From Podarcis pityusensis (taxonomy: Eukaryota), in assembly GCA_964106645.2 (NCBI GenBank), contig OZ067044.1: a stretch of 64,000 nucleotides of DNA; one strand, written 5' to 3'. Below the pieces are notes generated by a model. The model worked only from the letters and a program-made list of their open reading frames with translations, made no database searches and had not been told where the DNA came from. Positions 19,815 through 61,798 of this stretch are shown here, piece by piece (position 1 is the stretch's first letter; each line of letters starts with the position of its first letter). The translations under genes were made by a program, and so were the position numbers.

Positions 19815-20905
19815 CCAGGTATGGCAATGTGGGCTTGAGTGAGCACATCTTTGTTTGGGACTCTGTCATGCCATGTGATACCTAAAGTCTTCCAGATGCA
19901 GCACATGTGGAAGGCGTTGAGGCCTCGCTTCCATAAAGCAGTGTGCTGAACAGGCAAGCCTTGGTAGACCTTCATTCTTCCATACCCTTTTGGAGAGGCA
20001 AGCTAAAGCCATAGCTGCCTTTCTAATAATGCTTGTCTAGCTCAGCGTCAATGGAGAGGTTGCTGGTTATGGTGGAATCTAGGCAGACAAAATAGTCTAC
20101 CACCTCAAGCATGTGGTCACCAGTGCTGATTCATTGAGTGCTGGTGACGTCCTGACCCAGGATGATGGCCTTCATCAGGCTGATGGTAACTCCCTGCAGG
20201 CTTGGGCAAAACAGTTGATGAGTCTCTGTAGATTTGGGCTGCACTGTCACGGCTGTGTCATCTGCAAACAACATCTCTCAGATAAGAAACCACCACAGTT
20301 TTGTCTTGGTGTGGGGACATGCCAAGTTGAACAGACGCCTGTCACTCCTCAAATGGAAGTACGGTGGTACCTCGAGCTACAAATGCCTCAGGTTACAAAC
20401 GCTTCAGGTTACAAACTACGCTAACCTGGAAGAGTTACCTCGAGTTGAGAACTTTGCCCCAGGATGAGAACAGAAATTGTGTGCTGGTGGTGCAGCGGCA
20501 GCAAGAGGCCCCACTAGCAAAAGCACGCCTCTAGTTAAGAACAGTTTCAGGTTAAGAATGGACCTCCAGAACGAATTAAATTCGTAACTAGAGGTACCAC
20601 TGAACACACTGTCTTCAGTTGAGCTGAAGGTATATGAGACCACTAGGGAGAAGAATATGCCAAATAGAGTTGGGGTGAGGACACAGACCTGTTTCACACC
20701 GCTCTTTATGGGGAAGGCGTCCGAGGATGAGCTATCTACTGGACAGTGCCGCACATGTTCTCATGCAAGAACACCGTCACATTGTGAAGCTTAGGGGCAT
20801 CTCTGCTCTCAGCATTTCTCCTGCAGCTGGCACAGTGAGAAAATCATGTTGACGGTTGACTTCTAAAGCTACATTATGACTCTGGATAGACCCTGTCAGT
20901 GAGTA
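19815..20905 (-). mobile_element. Old RTE-clade LINE reverse-transcriptase fragment, interrupted by a MITE
   Basis: Minus strand encodes DAFPIKSGVKQVCVLTPTLFGIFFS, EMLFADD and GITWHDRVPNKDVL, which are RTE RT/C-terminal motifs; many stops and frameshifts. Confidence 0.8.
20362..20602. mobile_element. Tigger/pogo-like MITE (CAGTGGTACCTC TIR), copy 1
   Basis: TA|CGGTGGTACCTC ... GAGGTACCACTG, inserted in the RTE relic. Confidence 0.85.
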
Positions 20906-22799: not shown

Positions 22800-24140
22800 G
22801 AACGTGTCTACTTAATAGTTACTCATTCTGACTTTTGGTCCACAGCAGCAGATACTGCCCTCCCGAAGTTTTGGATGAAAGCTTCCATAACTCCTAAACA
22901 GGTGGCCTTGGTAGCTGGGGTTGATGGAAGTTGTAGTCCAAAACATCTGAAGGGCACCAAGTTGGGGGAGGTTATTCTAGAGAAACTGGCTATGAATTTA
23001 CTTTCTGTACACTGTAGTCCCTCTGAACTCTATAAAGTTCAGTGGTATTAACAGATACCCTTTTAAGGTTAGACCCAACAGTTTTCTACCCCTAACATAG
23101 AGCCCCAACCTCTGGTCTCCTCTCTTCTAAATTTGGAAGTGATAATTATTTTGCAAAATTTGCTATTAGAATTGCACGTGCTCTTCCCCTGGTATGGCCT
23201 GAATAAAGACTTACTGTAGATTTCTCTTCAGACTCTGTGGCTACTTGTGTTAAGTGGCTTCTCTGAAATAAGATTTTCTTCTTCTGCGAGATCCAGTTCA
23301 GAGCATATGGTTCCACAATTAATGTTTAGCAACAAACACCAATCTGAACTGGCCTGCTTCACAGATTTTTATCTTCAAATTTGGATCACTCAGTACCTTC
23401 AAAGCTCTCCCAACATATGGACAGTCTTGATTTTAACTTAGATGCTGTTTTGCTTTGGGAAGTTTTCAGTCGATTTGAAAAGCCACCAGACAATCTCATG
23501 TCTTATGTTCAGAAATAATTTAGCACCTGAGGTATTTTGCATGTCAAAAAACTTTTACTTATTCATTGAATTTTATTTCTGCATTTTCTAATTTTCTGTA
23601 TTTAACTATGTGTGTTTAAGGCTATTTTGAAACTATTTTGTGTTTTTAAACTATGACAGCCTTGGAGATTTGTTCTCTACAAACTTGTTTGGAACAAGTT
23701 CTGCCTTACTGGCAGTGCTAATTTAATTCACATAATGTAATTGCTTAATATTTAATAGCTTTCTTCCCTGAAATTCTCTGTCATGATATACATTTGCTTG
23801 TCCTTTATTAAAAGAATTTAGAGGTTTATTTATGGTTTAGAATTTTCTTCCCATGTCCTCCAAAATATTTCTCAAAAGCACCTGTAGCATTTTGGTCATC
23901 TTATACGAAATGCAGTACTAAAAGGATAGTATTACAGCGATACTTCAAGTTACAGATGCTTCAGGTTACAGACGCCGCTAACCCAGAAATAGTTCCTCGG
24001 GTTAAGAACTTTGCTTCAGAATGAGAACAGAAATCGTGCTCTGGTGGCGCAGCGGCAGCAGGAGACCCCATTAGCTAAAGTGGTACCTCAGGTTAAGAAC
24101 AGTTTCAGGTTAAGAACGGAACTCCAGAACAAATTTTGTT

Positions 24141-26277
24141 TTTTGTTTTTTTTTAAAAAAAATATTTATTGCTTTTAATAGTTACAAAAAAGTAGAAAAA
24201 AAGAGAAAAAAGAAAAAAAGAAAAAAAAGAAAAAAACAGTACAATATATAAACACTACAAACCCACCCTAAACCCATTAAGCTAAACACATGAACAAAGC
24301 AAGACAAAAACAATTTAAAAAACATCCCTCCTTTTCCATACTCTGTCCTTCATTCCCTTGTTTCCTCGACTTCCTCACACCTCCCTTCTTGTATCCCACT
24401 TCTAGTACTTGTTTCAGCAAATCCTTTCCATCTTTCTCTATTTTCTGTCATATTATGAATAACATATTCTTTAACCTTATTTCCCCTTAACGGTTGGTTA
24501 TTTATATACACCCAACTTCTTATAGCATTTCTGCTAAATCCATAAAATATCATTCCACCATTTTTCTGACAGTCATCACTTTAACAAAATTTCTAAATAA
24601 ACACTTTAAATTTTCCATTAATCTTCCACTATCTCCTCTCCCTGGCTTCGGATTCTGCCAGTCCTTTCCGTCAGTTCCATATAATCCATCAACCTGGTGC
24701 CCTTATATCCGAGGCTCTTAAATCTCTTCCAAGTCCCTTCTGCAGGTCTTCTTCATATTCTTTGATGCTCAGGAGCAAATCTCGGGAAAAATCCAGCCTA
24801 GCAATACTTTTGTTCCTTCTGGACAATTCAGCCAAATTTCCGAAGTTAAAAGTAAAGTCCATAGACTGTTTCAGAACGTATTTCAGGATTCCTCCAATTC
24901 TAGTGACCCCCAAAACTTCAAGCTCCTCCAAGCCCAGGTCCATGTCCCAAAAGTCAGTCAATCCCTGGATAGAGGGTTCTTTCCAACCTTCCTTCTTCAA
25001 TCCAAGCCGGGATCCTAGCCTCAAAATTTGACTTTTGCTAGATTCAGTCATGAAAGACCTCAATTTATAATCCTCAATCTGCTTCTGAGAAATTAAGGAT
25101 CCCGCTTGTACTACTTTTGGTTTCACATCGTCAGCTTTCTCCTTTTTCTCCACCATTTTCACATCATCAGCTTTCTCCTTTTCCTCCACCATTTGTCTAA
25201 CCAAGGTATGTTCCTGTACCAAATCCTGAGTTTTTTCTGTATTGACACTCACTTTTTGATTCAAATTAATCACGTTCTGTTCCAAATTGTCAATTTTAGA
25301 GATCATGTCACCTGTCTTTTTATGGAGCTGTTCCAACGAGTAGCTTATCTTGTATAATACAGTCACAATGGCTTCTCCTATCAACATTTTGAGTGATCCA
25401 AGGTCAGACTCCAATTTTCAGAATCTTATCTTGCAGCTGGAGCTCTCCCTGTTGCACTCCTGTAACAGTTTCACATGCTCCCTCTAGAGGGAAACAGTCT
25501 CCATTTGTATCAATTCTTTCAAGCACGACTCAAGCAAGTAACAAGAGTTTCAATTTTCAGTTACTTTTTCCTCCATTTTTAAACACAGAAGAGGACAATG
25601 GAAACAGCGCCTTTCTTATTTTAGCTAGCTGTCAAATCCGTTCTGTCAATAAACATTCCCCGAACGTCATCTGGCAGCCCTTTTCCAGGTTCCGAGCAGT
25701 GGCAATTTAATTTTGACTCTCTTCTGCAGGCGCACTAAATCCAAAACTTCCCCTCTCTTCTGCTTCCAAGAGGGGTTGTGTATTTTTGTCTGGTGGGAAT
25801 TTAATCCTTTATCAAAAGCTTTCAAAGACTTTAGCTTGTAACGTCTTTGCTTCAATCTATTTACAAAACGGGAGGCGGACTTCCTGTTTAGAACCTTCCC
25901 GCTTCAGCGCCAAATTAAAGTGTTTCAAGATCCAATTCTCCGTTCTACTCACGGGTAGTCGTTTAAAATCCAATTGTCCACAGGAAAAAGTCAGCGCTCT
26001 CCGGCAACAGCAATGCGGCTTCACTCCGTGAAAGAAGCGGTTGATTCAAAGCACCGCGCCGCTCACCCCACGTCGCTCCGGATCCCCAAAACAGGGTTTC
26101 CCCGCGAGTAGGGGAGGCGCAAAGGTGCCAGCCGAATCCCAGGTTCACAGGCTTCTCCCGCCTGTGATTTCTATGGGTCTCCGCCTTCACTGTGGCAGTC
26201 AGACCCTGCTTTTCACGGAGCAAATTCCTCCCGATCGGAGGAATTCAGCCATTGCTGGAGGTGCCTTCCCGGAAGTC
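24141..26277 (-). mobile_element. Non-autonomous L1 derivative (5'UTR + ORF1-like + ORF2 tip + 3'UTR + polyA)
   Basis: 17-bp TSD CCAGAACAAATTTTGTT (24124-24140, 26278-26294). CpG-containing 5' end starting GGACTTCCGGGAAGG. 3' end homologous to the L1 at 50993-52141. Confidence 0.85.
24689..25414 (-). CDS. L1 ORF1-like reading frame (coiled coil plus diverged downstream domain); 5' part frameshifted
   Basis: 241 open codons with heptad-like ISKIDNLEQNVINLNQKV. The upstream frame QQGELQLQDKILK joins via a 1-nt frameshift. 36-bp internal duplication (VEEKEKADDVK/VEKKEKADDVK). Confidence 0.55.
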   Translation of the reverse strand: MESDLGSLKMLIGEAIVTVLYKISYSLEQLHKKTGDMISKIDNLEQNVINLNQKVSVNTEKTQDLVQEHTLVRQMVEEKEKADDVKMVEKKEKADDVKPKVVQAGSLISQKQIEDYKLRSFMTESSKSQILRLGSRLGLKKEGWKEPSIQGLTDFWDMDLGLEELEVLGVTRIGGILKYVLKQSMDFTFNFGNLAELSRRNKSIARLDFSRDLLLSIKEYEEDLQKGLGRDLRASDIRAPG

Positions 26278-26642
26278 CCAGAACAAATTTTGTTCTTAAC
26301 CCGAGGTACCACTGTATATCCATGTCGCAGTGTGTTTTAGATTACATAATTCTAAACAAATGTAATTTAGATATAAGTCCAATATCACCTGTATATGAGA
26401 TCTCATGTTCTGCAGATGTACTGCAGACTTCTGATACATTCCATGTGCAATGGTCGTTACACTTTGACACACAAAGCTCAATAGCTGCTTTGTACATGCT
26501 GGAACTATTGGATGTTTTCAGTGCCTTTTGGGGTCAGGGAGAGAAGCCCCCAAATTTGTTGTTTTTTGTTTTTTGAAAAATAAGAGATCGTGGTGCAGCT
26601 GAGCTAACCAGCATGGAGAATTAATTATACAATGAAACTTTC

Positions 26643-27139
26643 TTTTTTTTTATAATTTTTTATTAAGGTTTTAAACAAAGAAAAAAGAAAAACAACACAC
26701 ACAAAAAACAATACAAAACTTAACAATAAAAACACAAAACATAACAATTAAAAACAAACTCTCTTTTCCATTTCCAATTTTAAATTACTTATTTTCTGGA
26801 CTTCCTCATACCTCCCTCTTTTGTATTCCAATCCACATTATTTGTCCAGCAGTTTCTTTTCCACTTTTTTAATCCCAATCTTTAATTTAATAAAATGTTA
26901 AAATATATAACTTCAACTTTTTTAAACCTAATCCTTGATCTTAATGTCATATAGCTTTAAATTTTTCCCTTTTATTATCAAATTTCCATTTCTTTAAACA
27001 TCTTTAATCTTGATCTTTAATCTTAATCTATCCTTAACTTTAACCTGTACAGCTGGAAACCACTTATTTTCAATCCAACATCACTCTAACATTCCTTAAT
27101 TTTGCAGTGTTTCTGAAGATAGTCTTTGAATTTCTTCCA
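26643..27139 (-). mobile_element. 5'-truncated L1-clade LINE (3'UTR + ORF2 tip)
   Basis: Poly(T) on the top strand; 20-bp TSD AATTATACAATGAAACTTTC (26623-26642, 27140-27159); homologous to 50993-51380. Confidence 0.88.
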
Positions 27140-36840: not shown

Positions 36841-37098
36841 TAGTGGTACCTCGGGTTACATACGCTTCAGGTTACATACACTTCAGGTTACAGACGCTTC
36901 AGGTTGCAGACTCCGCTAACCCAGAAATAGTACCTCGGGTTAAGAACTTTGCTTCAGGATGAGAACAGAAATCGTGCTCTGGCAGCGCGGCAGCAGCGGG
37001 AGGCCCCATTAGCTAAAGTGGTGCTTCAGGTTAAGAACAGTTTCAGGTTAAGAACAGACCTCCGGAACGAATTAAGTATTTAACCCGAGGTACCACTG
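36841..37098. mobile_element. Tigger/pogo-like MITE copy 4
   Basis: TA|TAGTGGTACCTCGGG ... CCCGAGGTACCACTG|TA. Confidence 0.9.
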
Positions 37099-41600: not shown

Positions 41601-44524
41601 CAGAAGTAAAGGAAGGGTTGGAAGAAGAGGTCCTAATGCATAGTACAAGGCAAGTGCAGGCAACCTACAGTCATCTGCAAATTTTCAAAAGCCCTCTGCG
41701 AGAGATCTATTCAGACATCTGGCAAGTGTTGCCTCCCTCTTCTGATATCTTTGGTTCTGCCTATTGCTGGCATGCAGTCCTGGACAGACTGCCCCAAATG
41801 AATGTGACCAAAAAAAAGTTTCCTCCTGCCCCAAGGGGTCTATAATCTCCTTGAGATCTTTTATTTATTTTAAGAGTCGTTAGGAATGCAACACACGGGA
41901 TGGGGAGGCTTAAGCCTTCCCTCTCCAACCACAATCCTGGGGGAAATTGGGTGCCCTGGGGAAATTGTTAGGGGCAAAGGCTCGCATTGCTACCAGTGAA
42001 CCATGGCTGTAAGAGAGACATCTTTCCAGGAAAGTTGTGGCCCTGGTGAAGATCAGACCCTTAAATAAATTTAAAATGTAGTTCTTAATGACACATTGAG
42101 CAACACATGTAGTTTGGCCCATACGCCTGCCTTCGCCGTCAGGGGAGGTGGCTAACATGCTTTTTGTTGAAAGGGTCTGCATTTATTTGGGTAGGTTCCT
42201 AGAACTATCCTTCGCTCAGTTCAATATGCAGCCACACAGAGCTCAACATTTCCCTCTGTGTTCCTGATCCTATCAGTGTTGTGTGATGACCCATCTGTGT
42301 TTTGGCAGTCATGCACATTCTGAGGTGAATAATAATTCTATAAAATTTGTTTCGCCAACGTTAGAGAGAAAACTATCAGAATCCAATTCCATGTGTTGCT
42401 CAGTAACTGTGTCCATGAACTTTTGTCAATACTTCCATTGGTGCAATTGTTGGTTTCAGATAAAAAGTCAGTTAGCTTTCTTCCTGTGGAGCAAGCTTAT
42501 AGTAGTTACTAGCATTCATGCTAGTAAACTTAAACAAGGGGAAGAAATTATTTTAAAAAATAAAACCATAACAACAATAATAGAAGAAGAAAGGTACAGA
42601 AGGTGAACAATGATGAAGGAAAGTAGGCTTGAGATTACTAAAACCAAAAAGAAACACCCAACCCAGCCGGCATGTTGTCTAGAAAGGCTTTTCCTGTCTT
42701 TAGTCTTAACATTTCTGTCTGTTCTCTAATCACATATTTCAAAGGAGCATACTTAGCTCTGTTTTTATTTCCATGAGTATGATAACCAATTTCCTGAAGT
42801 GTTGATGATTTCTGAAGTAAAGAACTAGAATTCGTTTAGCCTTCTGAACCTGAATGTTACAGATATTACCGTAAATTCCTGTACATTGGGGTAGGGAACC
42901 TGTCACCCCCGCCCACAATGTTGTTGAGCTTAGATTCTCAGCATGGCCAATAGTCAGATACAATGGGAATTGTAATCCAACAACATCCAGAGGGGCACAA
43001 ATCCCCATTCCTGTTCTTCACAAACCTCTTGCTCTCTGACAACCTCAGCAGCCCAAATAAGTTTTTTTTTAATGAAAAATATATGCTTCATTTGCCTCTC
43101 TTACATTGAAAATATTAAATACAGTCACACAATTCTGATATGAAGGCCTTCCCATTGTAAGGTTTTCATACAACAACAAAATAGGGTTTTATTGCCTTTT
43201 ATGTGAACAGGAAGATGGGAAAATCACAGTGGGCTTACTCTTTATATTTTCAGGGGAAAGTGAGTAGAAGAAACTGACTCCTTGCTGGCCCTAGACTTTT
43301 TCATGAGTGACTTATTAGTAACAGGAATCTTAATTGTAGTAAAATCAAGGCATTCCTTGGTAATTGTTAAATAACTTTAGAACATGTTCTGTGCTATATT
43401 AAGTTTTCCTGTAATACACAACAACTCATGTAATACTGTATAATGCAAAAATCTCACTACCACTGCTCATAAGCAGAAAACAATGCTATCACAAGGGCAA
43501 ATTTACCAACATAATGATGAACTGAGCTTTTAGCAAATAAGGTAATCACTGTTTTCAAACAGAAACTCTTGTTCAGTAAAGTACTTTGCTCAATGCTGAA
43601 TTGCCTAATCAAGTTATTGTTGTATATTCCTGTACCAATTCATAGATCATTTTCTATGCACTTGCGACTTGGTCCATTTTAGTATATGATTGCCTCAGGA
43701 CAACTAAGCATTTGTTCCATGTCTGAATAATTGTTTTTGTCATAACTGTTTTCTGGAAATTTTCTATCCAAGTAGCAAGCTGCCACATAAATCAGTACTG
43801 ACCAGTACTGACCACAGCTCTTAACCCTTAAGAGCTTGTTCCAAGTACATCAGCATCAACAAGAAATAACTTACGGTACCTATGACACTGCGCGCTTATC
43901 ATTCTATTTAGACTACATAGGTTGTGATTTACCAATCTACTGATGCTTCAAGTACCCACAAAAATAAATGGCATAAACTAGATCTTTCAATGTTGAATCA
44001 ATAGATGCTTTAGTAGTTGGATTCAGGGCTCCTTAAAGAAGTTCCCCAATCTGTTTGTTCCCTTCTCTATTTCAAAAAAAATGGTGCCTTCTGCTAGGCT
44101 TTTTCCATGCTTTGCAGAACTGTCCCTGTTAGTTGATGTACCACTTCTCACCTTCTAATCCCACTTTTTCAGCAAAGCTTTTATTTGGTCATCATAGTTT
44201 GGCTTTTCTCTATACTGTCTGCTTACTTACCAGTCTAAAGACTCACCCAGTCCTCTCCACTGCTTTGCTCAGCATTGTTCTGTTTCTTCAACATAACCTT
44301 ACATATTTTACCAGGAATTAGATTCCTCTGACAAAGAACCATGTCACTCTGTATCTTTCATCTACTATGTGGCTTTTTCTAACTAAAACATGGGAAAGGC
44401 ATGTTCTTTGTTTTCTCTAAGGCATCAATTAGGAGCCACAATATCAAATAAGTGAGTCTTATGCTAAACCTCACATTGATGTTCTAGGGATATTGATCTC
44501 AGTTAATGCGAATAATATAATATA

Positions 44525-44736
44525 CAGTGGTACCTTGGGTTACAGACGCTTCAGGTTACAGACTCCACTAACCCAGAAATAGTACCTTGGGTTAAGAACT
44601 TTGCTTCAGGATGAGAACAGAAATTGTGCGGCGGCGGGAGGCCCCATTAGCTAAAGTGGTACCTCAAGTTAAGAACACTTTCAGGTTAAGAATGGCCCTC
44701 CAGAACGAATTAAGTTCTTAACCCAAGGTACCACTG
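44525..44736. mobile_element. Tigger/pogo-like MITE copy 5
   Basis: TA|CAGTGGTACCTTGGGTTA ... TAACCCAAGGTACCACTG|TA. Confidence 0.9.
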
Positions 44737-48094: not shown

Positions 48095-48517
48095 TTTTAA
48101 AAAAATAATATTTATTATTTTTCCAAAAACTTAAACACTAAAAAGAAAGAAAACAATACAATACAACACATCAAATTAACAAAACAAGACAAAGACAATA
48201 AAATAAATCAAACAATTTCATTATCCCATCTTTCATTCACTTATTTCCACGACCTCCTCACACCTCCCTTTTTGTATTCCACTTGTTAATTATTTCAGCA
48301 ATTCCTTTCCATCTTCCTCTGTTTTCTATCCTATAATTATCTTAACTCATTCTAACCTTATTTTTTCCTTTAATGCTCTATTAACCTATCTGTACTTAAT
48401 TCCTTATAATATTTCTACTAAAGCAATATAACTTCATTTCAACATTTTTCTAACATTCATTAATTTTACAATATTTCTGTAAATAGTCTTTAAATTTTTT
48501 CCAATCTTTTTCCACCG
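48095..48517 (-). mobile_element. 5'-truncated L1-clade LINE
   Basis: 14-bp TSD ACTCATAGTGTTAT (48081-48094, 48518-48531); homologous to the L1 3' end at 51 kb; 5' junction shows ACTC microhomology. Confidence 0.88.
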
Positions 48518-48906
48518 ACTCATAGTGTTATGTTCATTAAAGTCGTTCATTGAGGGCTCATCTTGTGTTTATTTAATCTCCTCCCATTACACATTCAACA
48601 TCTTTCTCGGTCTTGGGTTGTACTTTTGTGTTTTGTCATGTTTATTGGTATCCGTCTGTCTTGGGAGACAATGAAGAAGTAACCCTCTAATTTCTCTTTC
48701 CTTTACAACTGGGAATGCCACTGTGATGGTTTTCTTTAGTTATGGTTTTGGTCCTTAGCAATACATCATTGGAGCCAAATCTCTTGTGGTGTGGAAAAGC
48801 ATTGAGTTAGTTGTCCTGGAATGCTAATGCTGTGCATATGCTGCAATCTGAGGCTGCTACAATGGAATGAATTGTGAAGGAATTAAAACAGTGGGGCAAA
48901 ATCTAT

Positions 48907-49212
48907 TTGTTGTTGTTTAGTCGTTTAGTCGTGTCCGACTCTTTGTTACCCAATGGACCAGAGCATGCCAGGCACTCCTGTCTTCCACTGCCTCCTGCAG
49001 TTTCGTCAAACTCATGCTGGCAGCTTCGAGAACACTGTCCAACCATCTCGTCCCCTTTCGTCCCCTTCTCCTTGTGCCCTCCATCTTTCCCAACATCAGG
49101 GTCTTTTCCAGGGAGTCTTCTCTTCTCATGAGGTGGCCAAAATATTGGAGCCTCAGCTTCAGGACCTGTCCTTCCAGTGAGCACTCAGGGCTGATTTCCT
49201 TAAGAATGGATA
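48907..49212 (-). mobile_element. 5'-truncated Bov-B (RTE) LINE
   Basis: Encodes SILKEISPECSLEGQVLKLRLQYFGHLMRREDSLEKTLMLG; (CAA)n tail; 12-bp TSD GGCAAAATCTAT (48895-48906, 49213-49224). Confidence 0.92.
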
Positions 49213-50992
49213 GGCAAAATCTATAGTGATGTGCTATTTGCCTTTTTATGCTGTATGTAGATCCCCGCCCCAATGCTATTTTCTGTTTGCAGCCTTTGTT
49301 GCTTCTGTTGTGTGTATGCCACTGTCCTGATGTAAGTTCCCTTTCTGCCACAATGCCATACACCAAATTCCTTTTTGTGTTTTGAAGAAGTGCCAATTTT
49401 CCCCACAGCTTCTAAGCTAACTACTGCACCATTCATTGGTTAATGTTTACTTCCTGCTTCAGCAAACCAGATCACAACACAGAAATGATGTCAGTCCTCT
49501 GAGCTGAAACAGATCAAAAGTTGCATATAAGAAACAGAAGCCAACTAGAAGAATACAACATCCCTTTTAAATTAAGGCTATGTGAACAATAAACAGGAGA
49601 TAGATATAAGATACAGAAAAAGTAGCTTTAGAAGCCCTAGAAAATTAACATTAATTGTTACCATAACATTGTAACTTGCTCTTTGAAGATTTAATGAAAT
49701 TGCCATTGTGTTCTATATTAAGATGCGAAAGACAGCAACTTACAGTAATAAGTTATCTGGTGGACAGACTTTATGCAGATAAAAAAGTGATGGGGAAATC
49801 CTCTGAAAAGTGTGGGATGAACTATTGAGTGTTAATCTTTCTACTTGCCCAGAGGATACAAACATGCCCTTAACCTGCTTTTTAGATGTTACATTTGATA
49901 GTCCATTTAAACAATCTGAAGAAATCTAAACTTTTTTAAATTTATTGCAGCTAACTGAATACAGTAATGCTAGCAGAGGAATAACTTTCCAGACATACAC
50001 TGTAATTTGTAACAATAATCCTCAAAGGCCTTAATCTCAAAAGACTTCTATTCATGAGTTCGGATTTTTACTTCATAAGAACGTCAATTTATCAATTAAG
50101 CACATCTGCTTCACAAGCAAAACAAGGTGTAATATTTCAAAGTACAAATGCCTCTTTCAACAGAATCTCTCAACGATTTATTCATCAACAATTACCTGAG
50201 ATGTGGATTTCAAAGAACATATTTTCTTTATCTTATATCTGCATACTTTCATAACCGCCATGACTTTATATAAATGTATCATTGGAAACAATGAACAAAG
50301 GAGATAAATGTAGCAAACTTTCATTCCATATATGGAAGGCTGAAAATATACTCCTAAAACTGATATATATTTGAAATCAGAAAGATGAAAATTATGCTTA
50401 TTTGATGGAGGAACAACTGGAGGGTATTAGACTTGTTTGCCCTTTGTTACCAAAACCCACATTTCAGTATTGAAGAAACTCCTAAAAACAGCACAGTTGA
50501 AGTTCATAGGAAAGCTGAATGTGAATACTGGTGGCCACAGACTGACACCCTGTCATTTTGTATTGTGCTGACCCCAAACATTAGAAAGACGTTTGATACA
50601 TTCCTCACTTTTAATTGCAGGCCAGATCACCCATCTCTTAATTTCATTGGATCGCTCACTCACTATATTTTGCTCAATATATTAAAATTCAGGGGAACAC
50701 AGAAAGCTGCCTTGTACCAAGTCAGACTATTGGTCTATCTAGCTAAATATCCTCCACACTGACTGGCAGTAGCACAGCCACAGAACTGGGCTCTTTGGCA
50801 TGCAAAGCACCTGCTCTAACACTGAGCTACAGCCCTTCCCCATGCCCTTTGATTGAAAGGAATCTTGATGAAGCTTACTTGGGAGTAAATTTACACATCA
50901 AAACTCCTTGAAAAGGGTTTGCACAGAACCAAGAAGAGGGGTGGGTGGTAAAAAGCCTCAAAGGAAAAAAAAATTAAAGGAAACCAGAGGAT

Positions 50993-52141
50993 TTTTTTTT
51001 TTAATAAGATATTTATTAGGCTTTTTTAAAGTATTACAATAAAAATGAAAAAAAAAATAACAAAAATACAAAATAAAAATAGTTAAAAACACACAGATTT
51101 TCCATTGCTTGTTTTCCTTTAGCTTGTTTCCCGGACCTCCTCATACCTCCCTTTTTTGTATTCCAGTTCAATTTGTTGGTTCAGCAAATCCTTACCCTCT
51201 TTATTTATCCTAATCTTTAGTCTTAAAATAGTAACGTTAAATTTTTACCTATTAACAACCCATTTTTCATAATCCCTTAAAGCATTACAGCTGGAAACCA
51301 CTTAATTTCTATCCAACATCATTCTAACATTCATTAATTTTACAATAATTCTGTAGATAGTCTTTGAATTTCTTCCAATCTTCTTCCACCGACTCTTCTC
51401 CCTGGTCTCGGATTCTGCCAGTCATTTCTGCCGGTTCCATATAGTCCATCAGCTTCATCTGCCATTCTTCCAAAGTGGGTAAATCTTGTGTCTTCCAATA
51501 CTTTCCAATGAGTATTCTTGCTGCTGTTGTGGCATACATAAAAAAGGTTCTATCCTTCTTTGGCACCAATTGGCCGACTATGCCCAGGAGAAAGGCCTCT
51601 GGTTTCTTCAAGAAGGTATATTTAAATACCTTTTTCAGTTCATTATATATCATTTCCCAGAAAGCCTTAATCCTTGGGCACGTCCACCAAAGGTGAAAGA
51701 ATGTACCTTCAGTTTCTTTACATTTCCAACATTTGTTATTGGGCAAATGATAAATTTTTGCAAGCTTGACTGGGGTCATGTACCACCTGTATATCATTTT
51801 CATAATATTCTCTCTTAAAGCATTACATGCCGTAAACTTCATACCTGTGGTCCATAACTGTTCCCAGTCAGCCATCATTATGTTATGTCCAACATCTTGT
51901 GCCCATTTAATCATAGCAGATTTCACCGTTTCATCCTGAGTATTCCATTTCAACAGCAAGTTATACATCTTTGACAAAATCTTAGTTTTGGGTTCTAACA
52001 GTTCTGTTTCTAATTTTGATTTTTCCACCTGGAAGCCAATTTTCTTGTCCAAATTATATGCCTCCATTATCTGATAATAATGAAGCCAGTCTCACACTTT
52101 ATTTTTTAGTTTCTCAAAACTCTGCAGTTTCAGTCTATCTC
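50993..52141 (-). mobile_element. 5'-truncated L1-clade LINE with open ORF2 C-terminus (ORF 51324-52067)
   Basis: CCHC-type motif CWKC..GTFFHLWWTC; polyA; 15-bp TSD AGGAAACCAGAGGAT (50978-50992, 52142-52156). Confidence 0.92.
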
Positions 52142-52880
52142 AGGAAACCAGAGGATCTTGGCTGATCTTATGGAAATGCAGTCTTTTAATGAGCCTGTGA
52201 CCAAATAAATCGAATTCGAAACCTGGCCTCAGATAGACAGTTGCTGTACATGGAGGTTCTACTTTTAACAAACAATTTGCTTTTACTGGAATGATTCCTT
52301 TGTATTCGAATGATGTATTGCCTGCTTTTTTATGCCCTTTATTAATAAATGTGTTGAGGTGCGTTTGTTTGTATATATGTACGTATGTATGTGTACGTAC
52401 GCACGCTGACACGCATCCGTGTTAGCGTACATACGTGCCAAACTGGGTCTTTGACCCGGGTGACAGAAAGCCTAGTTTCTGCCCTGCCCTGAGGAACGAT
52501 GATCTTTATTTTGCCTCCCTTGCCTCGGCACCAAGACTAGTTCTGAGTTTGTATTTTGAGAGCCAGCATGCAACTCCCTGCGCTTCTGCGCCACGAAGGA
52601 TTCCTTGAGGAGAAACGCGGGTCCTCCTGGGGCGGAGGCGTGGCGGGCGGGGGGCGGCGTTTTTGAACCTATGCTAATTCCGCTGCTGGGCCCCGAGGTC
52701 TCGCCAGCCCGGCAGCAGCGCTCGGCGGCGAGGGTGGGGAGGGGGAGGCCGGGGCGAGTCTTAAAGGGCCCGAGCATGCCGCTGCTTTTGTGACAGGGTC
52801 CTTTGATCCCGAGGAGCCGCGCCGCCGCCGGCTGAGGCAGGCAGTTGTCGCCGGGCGAGGAGGAGGAGGAGGAGGAAGAC

Positions 52881-52898
52881 ATGCGCCCGTTGCCATAA
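52881..52898 (+). other. Upstream ORF MRPLP*, whose stop overlaps the main ATG (TAATG)
   Basis: Reads ATG CGC CCG TTG CCA TAA; the last A of TAA (52898) is the A of the ARHGAP28 ATG. Confidence 0.7.
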
Positions 52899-53010
52899 TG
52901 GAGATAAAAGACACGGGCAGCGTGGTCCTGACAGCCTACCACTCTTACACCCCATCCCGGCTGGAGCCCAGCTTCGCTCCGGAGAGCCCCCCCAGCCGGT
53001 CGCCTCTCAG
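52898..53010 (+). CDS. ARHGAP28: First coding exon of Rho GTPase-activating protein 28 (MEIKDTGSVVLTAYHSYTPSRLEPSFAPESPPSRSPL + AG, phase-2 donor)
   Basis: ATG at 52898 has a strong Kozak context (A at -3, G at +4) and sits in a CpG island. The peptide matches the recalled human ARHGAP28 N-terminus MEVEDSGGVVLTAYHSYA; paralog ARHGAP18 has VVLTAYHP with a different N-terminus. The exon ends at CAG|GTAAAA (GT at 53011). Exon 2 was not found in the window. Confidence 0.88.
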
Positions 53011-53069
53011 GTAAAAGGAAGCGCGCGGGGAGCTGGCGAGGGGCGAGCTTTTGTCTCGAGGTCAGTCAT

Positions 53070-53090
53070 TGTGTGTGCGCGCGCGCGCGG

Positions 53091-53128
<38 letters not shown>
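53070..53128. repeat. (TG)n(CG)n tract followed by (GA)n at the start of intron 1
   Basis: TGTGTGTGCGCGCGCGCGCG GGG (GA)n directly visible. Confidence 0.9.
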
Positions 53129-53130
<2 letters not shown>

Positions 53131-53551
53131 CAGACAGGAGAGCGTGTGAGGGTCGCCCTCAGACACGCTCCTTCTCCCGTCCCTGCTTTTCTCCTCGTTT
53201 TCTCCTGAGGCGCCGAGGAAGTCTCCCTTCCTCTTCCCGCTGCAGTTTTGGCTGCGCCCTTGACCAGACGTGCGTCGAGGGAGCGGGGAGGGAGGCAGGG
53301 AGACGGGTTGGCGAAAGGTCTTCCGTTTAAAGTCTCCGGAGAGCTGCGGATCAAGTTTGTTTGCTGGCCGAGATGGGCGTTCAGATAACCTGCCGAGAAG
53401 CCGCGAGGGAATGAAGCGGGAGGGAAAGAGAGCGGAGGAATGGTCACTTATGGACGAGATGCACCGTTTAGGAAGGGGAAGAGTCAGCTGATAGTCAGAG
53501 CCGGTTTCATAGGCAAACTTGAGCAGTTTTCCCTTCTCCCCAGTTTATATA

Positions 53552-57155: not shown

Positions 57156-57394
57156 CAGTGGTACCTCAAGTTACATATGCTTCAGGTTACATACGCTTCA
57201 GGTTTCAGGCTCCACTAACCCAGAAATAGTGCTTCAGGTTAAGAACTTTGCTTCAGGATGAGAACAGAAATCGTGCTCCGGCAGCGTGGCGGCAGCAGGA
57301 GGCCCCATTAGAAGTGGTGCTTCAGGTTAAGAACAGTTTCAGGTTAAGAACGGACCTCCGGAATGAATTAAGTACTTAACCCGAGATACCACTG
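57156..57394. mobile_element. Tigger/pogo-like MITE copy 6
   Basis: TA|CAGTGGTACCTC ... GAGATACCACTG|TA. Confidence 0.9.
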
Positions 57395-57808: not shown

Positions 57809-58059
57809 TCCTGCAGGAGCTGCCTGCTAAAGTGGCTGTGGCCCAAATAGAAAAGTAGGACGTGGTCATGGTATAAAAGTGGTTGTGACTGTGGTGGAAA
57901 ATTAATACCCTTTTCATTACATGCTGAATATATAGAATAAAGCATGGCTGTGGTTGTTTCTCCTTTGTGATTTTCCTGGTACTGAGGAAGCGACTACTTT
58001 TAGTTGGTGTTCCAAAATCCAGTGGGTTCATCTTGTATGAAGTTGGCTCTTTGCATATA

Positions 58060-58277
58060 CAGTGGTACCTCAGGTTACAGACGCTTCAGGTTACAGACTC
58101 CGCTAACCAAGAAATAGTACCTTGGGTTAAGAACTTTGCTTCAGGAAGAGAACAGAAATGGCGCAGTGGCGGCAGCAGGAGGCCCCATTAGCTAAAGTGG
58201 TACCTTAGGTTAAGAACAGTTTCAGGTTAAGAACGGACCTCCAGAATGAATTAAGTTCTTAACCTGAGGTACCACTA
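58060..58277. mobile_element. Tigger/pogo-like MITE copy 7
   Basis: TA|CAGTGGTACCTCAGGTTA ... TAACCTGAGGTACCACTA|TA. Confidence 0.9.
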
Positions 58278-58311
58278 TATAGTAGCATTGGAAAAACCTG
58301 TTCTTCCTGAT

Positions 58312-61300
58312 TTGTTGTTGTTGTTGTTTAGTCATTTAGTCATGTCCGACTCTTCGTGACCCCATGGACCAGAGCACGCCAGCCACTCCTGTCTTCCACT
58401 GCCTCCCGCAGTTTGGTCAGACTCATGTTTGTAGCTTCGAGAACACTGTCCAACCATCTCGTCCTCTGTCGTCCCCTTCTCCTTGTGCCCTCCATCTTTC
58501 CCAACATCAGGGTCTTTTCCAGGGAGTCTTCTCTTCTCATGAGGTGGCCAAAGTATTGGAGCCTCAGCTTCATGACCTGTCCTTCCAGTGAGCACTCAGG
58601 GCTAATTTCCTTAAGAATGGATGTGTTTGATCTTCTTGCAGTCCATGGGACTCTCAAGAGTCTCCTCCAGCACCATAATTCAAAAGCATCAATTCTTTGG
58701 CGATCAGCCTACTTTATGGTCCAGCTCTCACTTCCATACAACACTAGTGGGAAAACCATGGCTTTAACTATACGGACCTTTGTTGGCAAGGTGATGTCTC
58801 TGCTTTTTAAGATGTTGTCTAGGTTTGCCATCGCCTTTCTCCCAAGGAGCAGGCGTCTTTTAATTTCGTGACTGCTGTCACATCTGCAGTGATCATGGAG
58901 CCCAAGAAAGTAAAATCTCTCACTGCCTCCATTTCTTCCCCTTCTATTTGCCAGGAGGTGATGGGCCCAGTGGCCATGATCTTCGTTTTTTTGATGTTGA
59001 GCTTCAGACCATATTTTGCGCTCTCCTCTTTCACCCTCATTAAAAGGTTCTTTAATTCCTCCTCACTTTCTGCCATCAAGGTTGTGTCATCTGCATATCT
59101 GAGGTTGTTGATATTTCTTCCGGCAATCTTAATTCCGGCTTGGGATTCATCCAGCCCAGCCTTTCGCATGATGAATTCTGCATATAAGTTAAATAAGCAG
59201 GGCGACAATATACAGCCTTGCCGTACTCCTTTCCCAATTTTGAACCAATCAGTTGTTCCATATCCAGTTCTAACTGTAGCTTCTTGTCCCACATAGAGAT
59301 TTCTCAGAAGACAGATGAGGTGATCAGGCACTCCCATTTCTTTAAGAACTTGCCATAGTTTGCTGTGGTCAACACAGTCAAAGGCTTTTGCATAGTCAAT
59401 GAAGCAAAAGTAGATGTCTTTCTGGAACTCTCTAGCTTTCTCCATAATCCAGCCCATGTTTGCAATTTGGTCTCTGGTTCCTCTGCCTCTTCTAAATCCA
59501 GCTTGCACTTCTGGGAGTTCTTGGTCCATATACTGCTTGAGCCTTCCTTGCAGATTTTAAAGCATAACCTTGCTAGCGTGTGAAATGAGTGCAATTGTGC
59601 GGTAGTTGGAGCATTCTTTGGCACTGCCCTTCTTTGGGATTGGGATGTAGACCGATCTTCTCCAATCCTCTGGCCACTGTTGAGTTTTCCAAACTTGCTG
59701 GCATATTGAGTGTAGCACCTTAACAGCATCATCTTTTAAAAATTTAAGTACCGTATTTTTCGCTCTATAAGACGCACCAGACCACAAGACGCACCTAGTT
59801 TTTGGAGGAGGAAAACAAGGGGAAAAAAATTCTGAATCTCAGAAGCCAGAACATCAAGAGGGATCGCTGCACAGTGAAAGCAGCAATCCCTCTTGCTCTT
59901 CTGGCTTCTGGGATAGCTGCGCAGCCTGCATTCGCTCCATAAGACGCACACACATTTCCCCTTACTTTTATAGGAGGGAAAAAGTGAGTCTTATAGAGCA
60001 AAAAATACGGTAGTTCAGCTGGAATACCATCACTTCCACTGGCCTTGTTATTTGCAGTGCTTTCTAAGGCCCATTTGACTTCACTCTCCAGGATGTCTGG
60101 CTCAAGGTCAGCAACCACACTACCTGGGGTGTACGAGCCATCCATATCTTTCTGGTATAATTCCTCTGTGTATTCTTGCCACCTCTTCTTGATGTCTTCT
60201 GCTTCTGTTAGGTCCTTACCACTTTTGTCCTTTATTATGGTAATCTTTGTACGAAATGTCCCTTTCATATCTCCAATTTTCTTGAACAGATCTCTGGTTC
60301 TTCCCATTCTGTTGTTTTCCTCTATTTCTTTGCATTGCTCGTTTAAGAAGGCCTTCTTGTCTCTCCTTGCTATTTTTTGGAAATCTGCATTCAATTTCCT
60401 GTATCTTTCACTATCTCCCTCACATTTTGCTTGCCTTCTCTCCGCTATTTGTAAGGCCTCGTTGGACAGCCACTTTGCTTTCTTGCATTTCCTTTTCATT
60501 GGGATGGTTTTTGTTGCTGCCTCTTGTATAATGTTGCAAGCCTCCATCCATAGTTCTTCAGGCACTCTGTCCACCAAATCTAAATCCTTAAACCTGTTCC
60601 TCACTTCCACTGTGTATTCATAAGGGATCTGACTTAGATTGTATCTTACCGGCCCAGTGGTTTTTCCTACTTTCTTCAGTTTAAGCTTGAATTTTGCTAT
60701 AAGAAGCTGATGATCTGAGCCACAGTCCACTCCAGGTCTTGTTTTTGCTGACTGTATAGAGCTTCTCCATCTTTGGCTGCAGAGAATATAATCAATCTGA
60801 TTTCGATGCTGCCCATCTGGTGATGTCCATGTGTAGAGTCATCTCTTGTGTTGTTGGAAAAGAGTGTTTGTGATGACCAGCTTGTTCTCTTGACAGAACT
60901 CTATTAGCCTTTGCCCTGCTTCGTTTTGAACTCCAAGGCCAAACTTGCCAGTTGTTCCTTTTATCTCTTGACTCCCTACTTTAGCATTCCAATCCCCTAT
61001 AATGAGAAGAACATCCTTCTTTGGTGTCAATTCTATAAGGTGTTGTAAGTCTTCATAGAATTGGTCAATTTCAGTTTCTTCAGCACCAGTGGTTGGTGCA
61101 TAAACTTGGATTACTGTGATGTTAAAAGGTCTGCCTTGGATTCGTATCAAGATCATTCTATCATTTTTGAGATTGCATCCCAATACAGCTTTTGCCACTC
61201 TTTTGTTGACTACGAGGGCCACTCCATTTCTTTTACGGGATTCTTGCCCACAGTAGTAGATATGATGGTCATCCGAACTGAATTCGCCCATTCCCATCCA

Positions 61301-61798
61301 TTTTAGTTCACTGATGCCCAGGATGTCAATATTTATTCTTGCCATCTCATTTTTGACCACATCCAACTTACCAAGGTTCATGGTTCTTACATTCCAGGTT
61401 CCTATGCAATATTTTTCTTTACAGCATTGGACTTTCCTTTCGCTTCCAGGCATATCCGCAACTGAGCGTCCTTTCGGCTTTGGCTCAGCCGCTTCATCAG
61501 CTCTGAATCTACTTGTACTTGTCCTCCGCTCTTCCTCAGTAGCATGTTGGACGCCTTCCAACCTGAGGGGCTCATCTTCCAGCGTCATAACTTTTATATG
61601 CCTTTTGTATTTGTCTATGGAGTTTTCTTGGCAGGGATACTGGAGTGGCTTGCCGGTTCCTGCTCCAGGTGGATCACGTTTGGTCAAAACTCTCCACTAT
61701 GACCTGTCCATCTTGGGTGGCCCTGCACGGCATAGCTCATAGCTTCTCCAAGTTATTCAAGCCCCTTCGCCACGGCAAGGCAGTGATCCATGAAGGGG
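58312..61798 (-). mobile_element. Near full-length Bov-B (RTE clade) LINE, inactivated, antisense in ARHGAP28 intron 1
   Basis: APE motifs (GTWNVRTM, GISELKW, GDWNAKVG, SDHQL) and RT motifs (FIDYAKAFD, GVRQGCILSP, RYADD); (CAA)n tail; TSD GTTCTTCCT(G/A)AT (58300-58311, 61799-61810). Disabled by stops at 60839-41 and 59557-59, a frameshift near 58880 and a MITE insertion. Confidence 0.95.
59751..60010. mobile_element. Tc2/pogo-like MITE inserted in Bov-B
   Basis: TA|CCGTATTTTTCGCTCTATAAGAC ... GTCTTATAGAGCAAAAAATACGG|TA. Removing it rejoins ...DGIPAEL to LKFLKDDAVKVLHSICQQ. Confidence 0.92.

Follow-up and report, generated by a model that had tools for sequence, protein, structure and literature searches.

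An ORF1-only L1 derivative in Podarcis pityusensis, most likely of HAL1 type and arisen independently in lizards

A 2137 bp insertion in the genome of the lizard Podarcis pityusensis raises the question of whether an L1 that has lost nearly all of ORF2 has founded a lineage of its own there and, if so, what its ORF1 is kept for. The insertion lies in a 64,000 nt stretch of contig OZ067044.1 (assembly GCA_964106645.2), here called the window. A sequence-only reading of the window had proposed an independently evolved lizard half-L1 that retained only ORF1. The ORF1-only half-L1 architecture itself is already known from the HAL1 elements of mammals (Smit 1999; Bao and Jurka 2010, both as cited in passages of PMC5753468, PMC3627910 and PMC5786205).

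Insertion site and layout of the element

The element occupies 24141-26277 on the minus strand and is flanked by a perfect 17 bp target duplication (24124-24140 and 26278-26294), which grows to 20 bp if one mismatch is allowed. The 20 bp duplication would put the nick at TCTT/AA on the + strand, which we take to be an L1-endonuclease-type site. The coordinates, the orientation, the 17 bp duplication and the polyA tail had all been read correctly, and so had the placing of the insertion inside a MITE. The host MITE is TA-flanked and interrupted by the element, whereas its five other copies in the window run through the corresponding point without a break. Contigs from the flanks of the insertion end within the MITE. 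When contigs of four sequencing runs were placed on 24100-26600 at 80% likeness, the loose ends of more than 160 contigs per run at the MITE breakpoint ran on into the MITE in the three DNA-type runs. The five further MITE copies (20388-20577, 36880-37073, 44523-44711, 57177-57369 and 58058-58279) share 82-91% identity with the host copy. A T-rich change at the insertion site is present in the host copy and absent from the others, and may have created the insertion target. The features, from the 5' side of the element, are as follows.

26278..26314, no strand: host MITE, shorter part, with the terminal repeat adjoining TA
26278..26294, no strand: target-site duplication, 5' copy (reaching 26297 if one mismatch is allowed, with its end at the TCTT/AA site, + strand)
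26247..26277, minus: L1-type 5' terminus (GACTTCCGG ... ATGGCT), compared with the lizard clade-1 terminus in passages of PMC5381506
25388..26277, minus: 5'UTR, CpG-rich in 25860-26277 (28 CpG, o/e 0.91)
24689..25387, minus: open ORF, L1 ORF1-derived by alignment, 232 codons and stop
25142..25384, minus: coiled-coil segment, predicted helix, residues 2-82
25121..25192, minus: in-frame 36-nt tandem duplication within the ORF
24881..25027, minus: first half of the RRM (aligns to parent strands 1-2 and helix 1), with a deletion of ~40 residues next to it at about 24880
24734..24880, minus: remnant of the ORF1 C-terminal domain (CTD), with a 17-residue deletion at about 24763
24566..24733, minus: ORF2 end, clear from 24692 down and weakly supported at 24693-24733, interrupted by stops in its ORF2 reading frame; the ORF takes its own stop from here
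24171..24565, minus: L1 3'UTR, with a T-rich tract and blocks common to three other L1 tails in the window
24141..24170, minus: AATAAA signal (24165-24170) and short A tail
24124..24140, no strand: target-site duplication, 3' copy
23935..24140, no strand: host MITE, longer part

At the 5' end, GACTTCCGG at 26277 is followed 25 nt further in by ATGGCT at 26252. This terminus resembles that of lizard clade-1 L1s as given in passages of PMC5381506, and the L1-type 5' end of the earlier reading is upheld. Its 5'UTR of about 750 bp was too short: as the ATG-to-stop frame starts at 25387, the 5'UTR is about 890 bp. It carries six short upstream ATG frames (1-17 codons) and, by analogy, likely holds an internal promoter. 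Over the first 420 bp (25864-26283), summed contig depth is roughly 10-100 times that over the ORF body in all four runs, and several internal-deletion contig variants occur near 25890-25985. The 5' end is common to far more numerous elements, either full-length L1 families or other short derivatives.

The ORF had been given as 241 codons. The open frame is real, but it measures 242 codons from stop to stop and 232, without interruption, from the ATG at 25387 to the stop at 24689. Two in-frame ATGs lie further upstream. That at 25504 meets a stop after 6 codons in the window copy, and other copies may read through from it. That at 25576 was rejected as a start for its stop after 8 codons and the single-base gaps found there in related contigs.

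Endonuclease and RT are absent from the 2137 bp insert, as claimed. The jump into the end of ORF2, placed at ~24695 by the sequence-only reading, stands, but its position was probably about 40 bp off. The ORF2 remnant, which reads LMDYMELT... from 24692 and contains stops, matches the L1 at 51 kb in the window (69% over 398 nt, E 1e-32). In a post hoc block test, with blocks chosen after the alignment was seen, the 40 nt above 24692 aligned to ORF2 of the same L1 (P 0.002-0.008 against shuffles), and the next two 40-nt blocks showed no resemblance to it (P 0.27 and 0.95). As these 40 nt still align to ORF2, the junction is probably near 24733, where the ORF1-derived residues end. The final 14 codons of the open frame and its stop are therefore likely to derive from ORF2 sequence, and the remnant, confirmed as the end of ORF2 with stops, comprises the last 45-55 codons rather than ~40. 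In run X2, contigs of both subfamilies (97% and 84% identical) end exactly at 24734, as does an 84% contig in X5, which suggests unusual nucleotide conservation at the proposed junction (24734-24763).

Blocks of the 3'UTR are common to three 5'-truncated minus-strand L1s in the window (26643-27139, 48095-48517 and 50993-52141, with target duplications of 20, 14 and 15 bp), which are candidates for relatives of a driver L1. Two short 3'UTR blocks (about 24355-24430) are kept across the four otherwise diverged L1 tails and could act in the RNA as a signal for lizard L1 ORF2p. Elsewhere in the window, long minus-strand frames at about 58300-61750 contain endonuclease- and RT-like sequence and resemble an RTE/Bov-B LINE, to which a short 3' piece near 48900-49400 is related. 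A GC-rich region with overlapping frames at about 52400-53550 resembles the promoter or first exon of a gene.

Ancestry of the ORF1 product and its two internal deletions

When the ORF was used in a full HMMER search, seven hits at E<=0.001 were returned among 1.84 billion representatives. Two were Podarcis L1 ORF1-like proteins, five were unnamed and none was mammalian. One of the Podarcis hits led to nine lizard ORF1p-like proteins, one of them named as an L1 RRM-domain protein in UniRef; their alignment excludes three further hits that are fusions or chimeric gene models. HHalign matched the family profile to the nine lizard ORF1p with a probability of 98.9 (E 2e-17, 196 columns), and a single-pair comparison of the ORF with a lizard ORF1p gave 27% identity (E 2e-17). 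The lizard profile in turn matches human ORF1p (E 0.001-0.002), and all ten Foldseek matches to the lizard ORF1p model at E<=0.001 were human ORF1p. By these comparisons the window ORF is homologous to Podarcis L1 ORF1p, in line with the L1 ORF1 ancestry supposed earlier.

Pfam did not recognise the ORF, and it also found no match at E<=0.001 for four lizard ORF1p, so its silence on the ORF is uninformative. A word-based homolog search with the ORF returned nothing, PDB sequence searches with single proteins gave coiled-coil noise only, Foldseek found no match at E<=0.001 to the low-confidence ORF model, and the single Rfam match was a chance one that scored far under the cut-off. Two Podarcis muralis TRIM39-like gene models (P0020 and P0021) match 52-58% of an L1 ORF1p at 67-72% identity, and are possibly a TRIM-ORF1 fusion or an annotation artefact. 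In the Podarcis raffonei gene model P0005, the ORF1 coiled coil is joined to what we take to be ORF2 pieces, and this is probably a mis-spliced L1 annotation.

Compared with the Podarcis ORF1p P0012, the ORF product is shorter by some 55 residues at the N-terminus and lacks the stretches 217-256 and 296-312. On the parent model, the deletion of 217-256 (~40 residues) corresponds to RRM strand 3, helix 2 and the last strands. The two internal deletions are shared family-wide and remove half of the RRM and part of the CTD. ORF1 was thus indeed kept and diverged, as the sequence-only reading had it, but these deletions had been missed. By alignment, the family has lost the counterpart of human REKG235-238 by deletion and carries altered counterparts of RR261-262 and YPAKLS282-287; in human L1, mutating these motifs harms RNP or foci formation, according to passages of PMC2951350. 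An Arg that is invariant in nine of nine parent proteins is absent from the family. The window protein and four relatives carry net charges of -1 to -10, compared with +2 to +7 in five parents.

AlphaFold predicts one long helix (residues 2-82), with pLDDT below 50 from residue 77 on, and the loss of the RRM fold therefore rests on the alignment. Measured against a canonical L1 ORF1p, the product has the N-terminal coiled coil, which aligns to the parent, is predicted as the helix 2-82 and models into a trimer. It lacks a complete RRM, and its CTD, which should include RR and YPAKLS-type motifs, is incomplete through the 17-residue deletion. The product is presumably unable to chaperone RNA in the usual way.

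These losses bear on the idea that the product is a self-sufficient homotrimer that binds and packages its own RNA through a remodelled C-terminal half, as is usually assumed for HAL1 ORF1p. In guinea-pig HAL1, ORF1 coding was held for 29-44 Myr, which passages of PMC3627910 take as a need for a cis-encoded ORF1p, and a conserved Arg-containing C-terminal motif is kept in the lizard family. However, half of the RRM is gone, the net charge is neutral to acidic and the C-terminal half is without a predicted fold, and we consider a homotrimer of this kind distinctly unlikely.

Copies of the element and retention of the frame

Among the 24 runs listed, 14 (from five organisms) contain 28-45% of the element's sampled words, six contain 5-8% and four none. 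None of the runs with these words was listed as RNA, although X15 may be an RNA run. The unique flank has a depth of about 10 in X2, 24 in X5 and 41 in X8. Single contigs within the ORF, at 95-99% identity, have 20-33 times the flank depth in X2, 17-24 times in X5 and 9 times in X8, and summed ORF-bin depth is 17-329 times that of the flank; contig depth is a rough proxy rather than a copy number, and we read it only as tens of copies. The closest contigs are about 3% from the window copy, as expected of young copies, and a second contig set is 81-85% identical to it (a subfamily at ~84%). Record 27 of X8, which is 80% identical and so comes from another locus, spans the junction by more than 100 nt per side, while record 17 of X5 spans 24692 but reaches less than 31 nt above 24733. 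Thus, one contig clearly spans the junction among the 32 of 14,491 contig pieces listed, which are not independent of each other.

Six other protein clusters (P0002, P0003, P0004, P0007, P0008-11 and P0022), at 21-47% identity, align over the same shortened layout with open frames, in a protein search that can return open frames only. Five of the six have the junction-spanning C-terminus in common, P0003 ending before it, and the coverage of P0004 is limited to the last 87 residues. We infer that the elements encoding these sister proteins are also without ORF2. In a tree with a midpoint root only, from which P0004 and P0009-11 were left out, the six family sequences formed one side of a branch and the nine parent sequences the other (100/100).

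The 2137 bp insert therefore belongs to a family and is no local deletion of an L1. Raised depth, two subfamilies and the spanning contig from another locus make the junction multi-copy, a point on which the sequence-only reading had staked its half-L1. A single ordinary L1 with deletions acquired after insertion would be in keeping with the one copy in the window, but the same three observations and the junction-spanning end shared by five clusters refute it, and its probability is negligible.

Because the six clusters keep the layout with open frames at 21-47% identity, we conclude that ORF1 coding has been retained over a long period. In a neutral drift simulation without indels, with 400 runs per level of identity, the frame stayed open in five runs at 70% and in none at 60%, 47% or 37%. 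Gaps occur in two of the 11 listed contig pieces within the ORF (4 gap letters, 250 substitutions) and in seven of the nine listed pieces outside it (36 gap letters, 161 substitutions), a contrast for which nine mixed pieces were set aside and in which pieces are not independent. Among the 40 of 358 variants listed, nine of 16 in the true ORF were synonymous against 5.7 expected, which is not significant (P 0.07), and 11 of 20 were synonymous over the longer frame. The coiled coil is conserved no better than the rest of the ORF, and constancy across families is highest at the C-terminal end, which is probably ORF2-derived. Family members are 20-67% identical to each other and lizard ORF1p 47-83%, from which the family's ORF1 appears to evolve faster than parent ORF1p. 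Bao and Jurka reportedly found in 2010 that HAL1 ORF1, too, evolves faster than L1 ORF1.

In the strongest rival to a coiled-coil role, the family is the same but selection acts only on an open, translated frame, and the protein is a drifting by-product that avoids stops; ribosome loading would stabilise the RNA or place it beside nascent ORF2p. The wider divergence of the relatives than of lizard ORF1p, the differing start sites, the loss of all known RNA-binding motifs, the acidic charge and a synonymous excess that is weak where frame preservation is strong are in its favour. We nevertheless consider it rather unlikely, as a heptad-register helix of ~70 residues has survived and can still be modelled into the parent trimer, the frame is about 200-230 codons in most families and several positions hardly vary even though overall identity is 21-47%.

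A possible coiled-coil adaptor and relationship to known elements

The explanation that we find best, to which we give an even chance, is that the insert is a full-length copy of a non-autonomous L1 derivative, likely copied in trans by ORF2p, whose ORF1 coiled coil is predicted to join the ORF1p trimer of a driver L1. The adaptor mechanism taken by itself, which is modelled, has at best that chance and perhaps slightly less. Mobilisation in trans by L1 ORF2p is suggested by the missing enzyme together with the L1 ends and the insertion signature (17-20 bp duplication, TCTT/AA-type site and A tail). Under this explanation, a single founding RNA from a lizard clade-1 L1 would have had the end of ORF1 joined to the last 45-55 codons of ORF2. 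The element would be transcribed from the L1 promoter and then translated, and its coiled coil, while still nascent, would assemble with normal ORF1p on the RNA that encodes it. Co-assembly would draw L1 particles with ORF2p to that RNA, and ORF2p would nick a T-rich site and copy from the A tail. If lizard L1 were stringent in recognising 3' ends, the retention of the ORF2 end would be explained, though the passages of PMC3747384 and PMC4476161 concerned give no lizard L1 example of it.

A 2+1 heterotrimer model of two parent coiled coils and the family's scored 0.68 compared with 0.01 for the best control, the controls being unrelated proteins and not other coiled coils. Contact agreement between runs was at least 96% and partner pLDDT 80; 51 of 78 solved pairs and two of 108 mismatched pairs attained the pass mark (39/65 and 2/126, respectively, in eukaryotes). 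As the partner is a close relative of a solved trimer, a pass is expected, and the model shows only likeness, not binding. Co-assembly with driver proteins has been proposed in general for ORF1-present non-autonomous LINEs (passages of PMC5786205).

The modelled co-assembly would also be expected of a dominant-negative subunit kept for host benefit that poisons the trimers of L1 ORF1p, and such a poison should take the form of a coiled coil lacking RNA-binding domains. However, this is a mobile multi-copy family with young copies (~3% from the closest contigs) rather than a single fixed locus, and a poison acting in cis would impair the copying of the element that encodes it. A benefit to the host is very unlikely, and both it and the homotrimer are less likely than a frame selected only for its translation.

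The family is very probably of HAL1 type. Like mammalian HAL1 in passages of PMC5753468, PMC3627910 and PMC5786205, the element is a non-autonomous L1 derivative with an ORF1 product only, both L1 ends and a long-held frame. Its derivation from the L1 clade is seen in the ORF1 homology and in an ORF2 end and 3'UTR that match L1 tails; its product is without ORF2p (a 232-codon frame beside the last 45-55 ORF2 codons, with stops); it has spread as a unit, with many copies, a target duplication and polyA; and its coding capacity has been maintained, according to the open relatives at 21-47%, the neutral simulation and the gap contrast. Unlike mammalian HAL1, the only kind that those passages describe, it arose from a lizard L1, and hence separately. 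Its ORF1 is without half of the RRM and part of the CTD. Named mammalian HAL1 families descend from mammalian L1, whereas the nearest named relatives here are Podarcis ORF1p.

With lizard clade-1 L1s (Boissinot and Sookdeo 2016; passages of PMC5381506) the element shares the 5' terminal motif, the T-rich 3'UTR, AATAAA and a long CpG-rich 5'UTR (about 890 bp, compared with 792-1465 bp in Anolis). It is 2.1 kb rather than about 6.4 kb and has no endonuclease or RT. With Podarcis ORF1p (P0012 and P0006) it shares ORF1 ancestry at 27-30% identity, although its product has 232 residues and the ORF1 of full-length parents 339-376. HeT-A and Ag-Sponge, bipartite non-autonomous LINEs, also have one ORF1-type protein, which has been proposed to multimerise with the proteins of an autonomous partner and so enhance transposition (passages of PMC5786205). 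They derive from the Jockey and CR1 clades, and we claim no relationship in sequence.

Among the papers listed in literature searches, we found no report of a reptile HAL1, and an existing entry for the family in Repbase or Dfam is possible. Passages of PMC8535693 and PMC3183009 mention HAL1 for mammals only, and those of PMC5203782 contain no mention of it. The proposal of an independent lizard ORF1-only L1 derivative is supported by the many copies with a shared junction and by the homology of the ORF to lizard L1 ORF1p, and the element is most likely of HAL1 type, with an origin of its own in lizards.

The HAL1 way of life would thereby extend from mammals to lizards, by a separate origin. 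The family also sets apart two ideas on why such elements keep ORF1: as the RNA-binding parts were apparently deleted at the founding of the family and the frame is open through deep divergence, the selected trait cannot be standard chaperone activity. This makes it testable whether ORF1 aids a non-autonomous element by coiled-coil co-assembly or by its translation alone. Tentatively, we envisage an old, still-spreading half-L1 lineage whose ORF1p is a pure adaptor without its RNA-binding half, selected only for a coiled coil that slots into the driver trimer. If true, this would be a protein-tethered hijack of L1, unlike the RNA tethering of Alu type and the self-sufficient ORF1p of HAL1, and the family would be a natural set of variants for testing the role of the ORF1p coiled coil.
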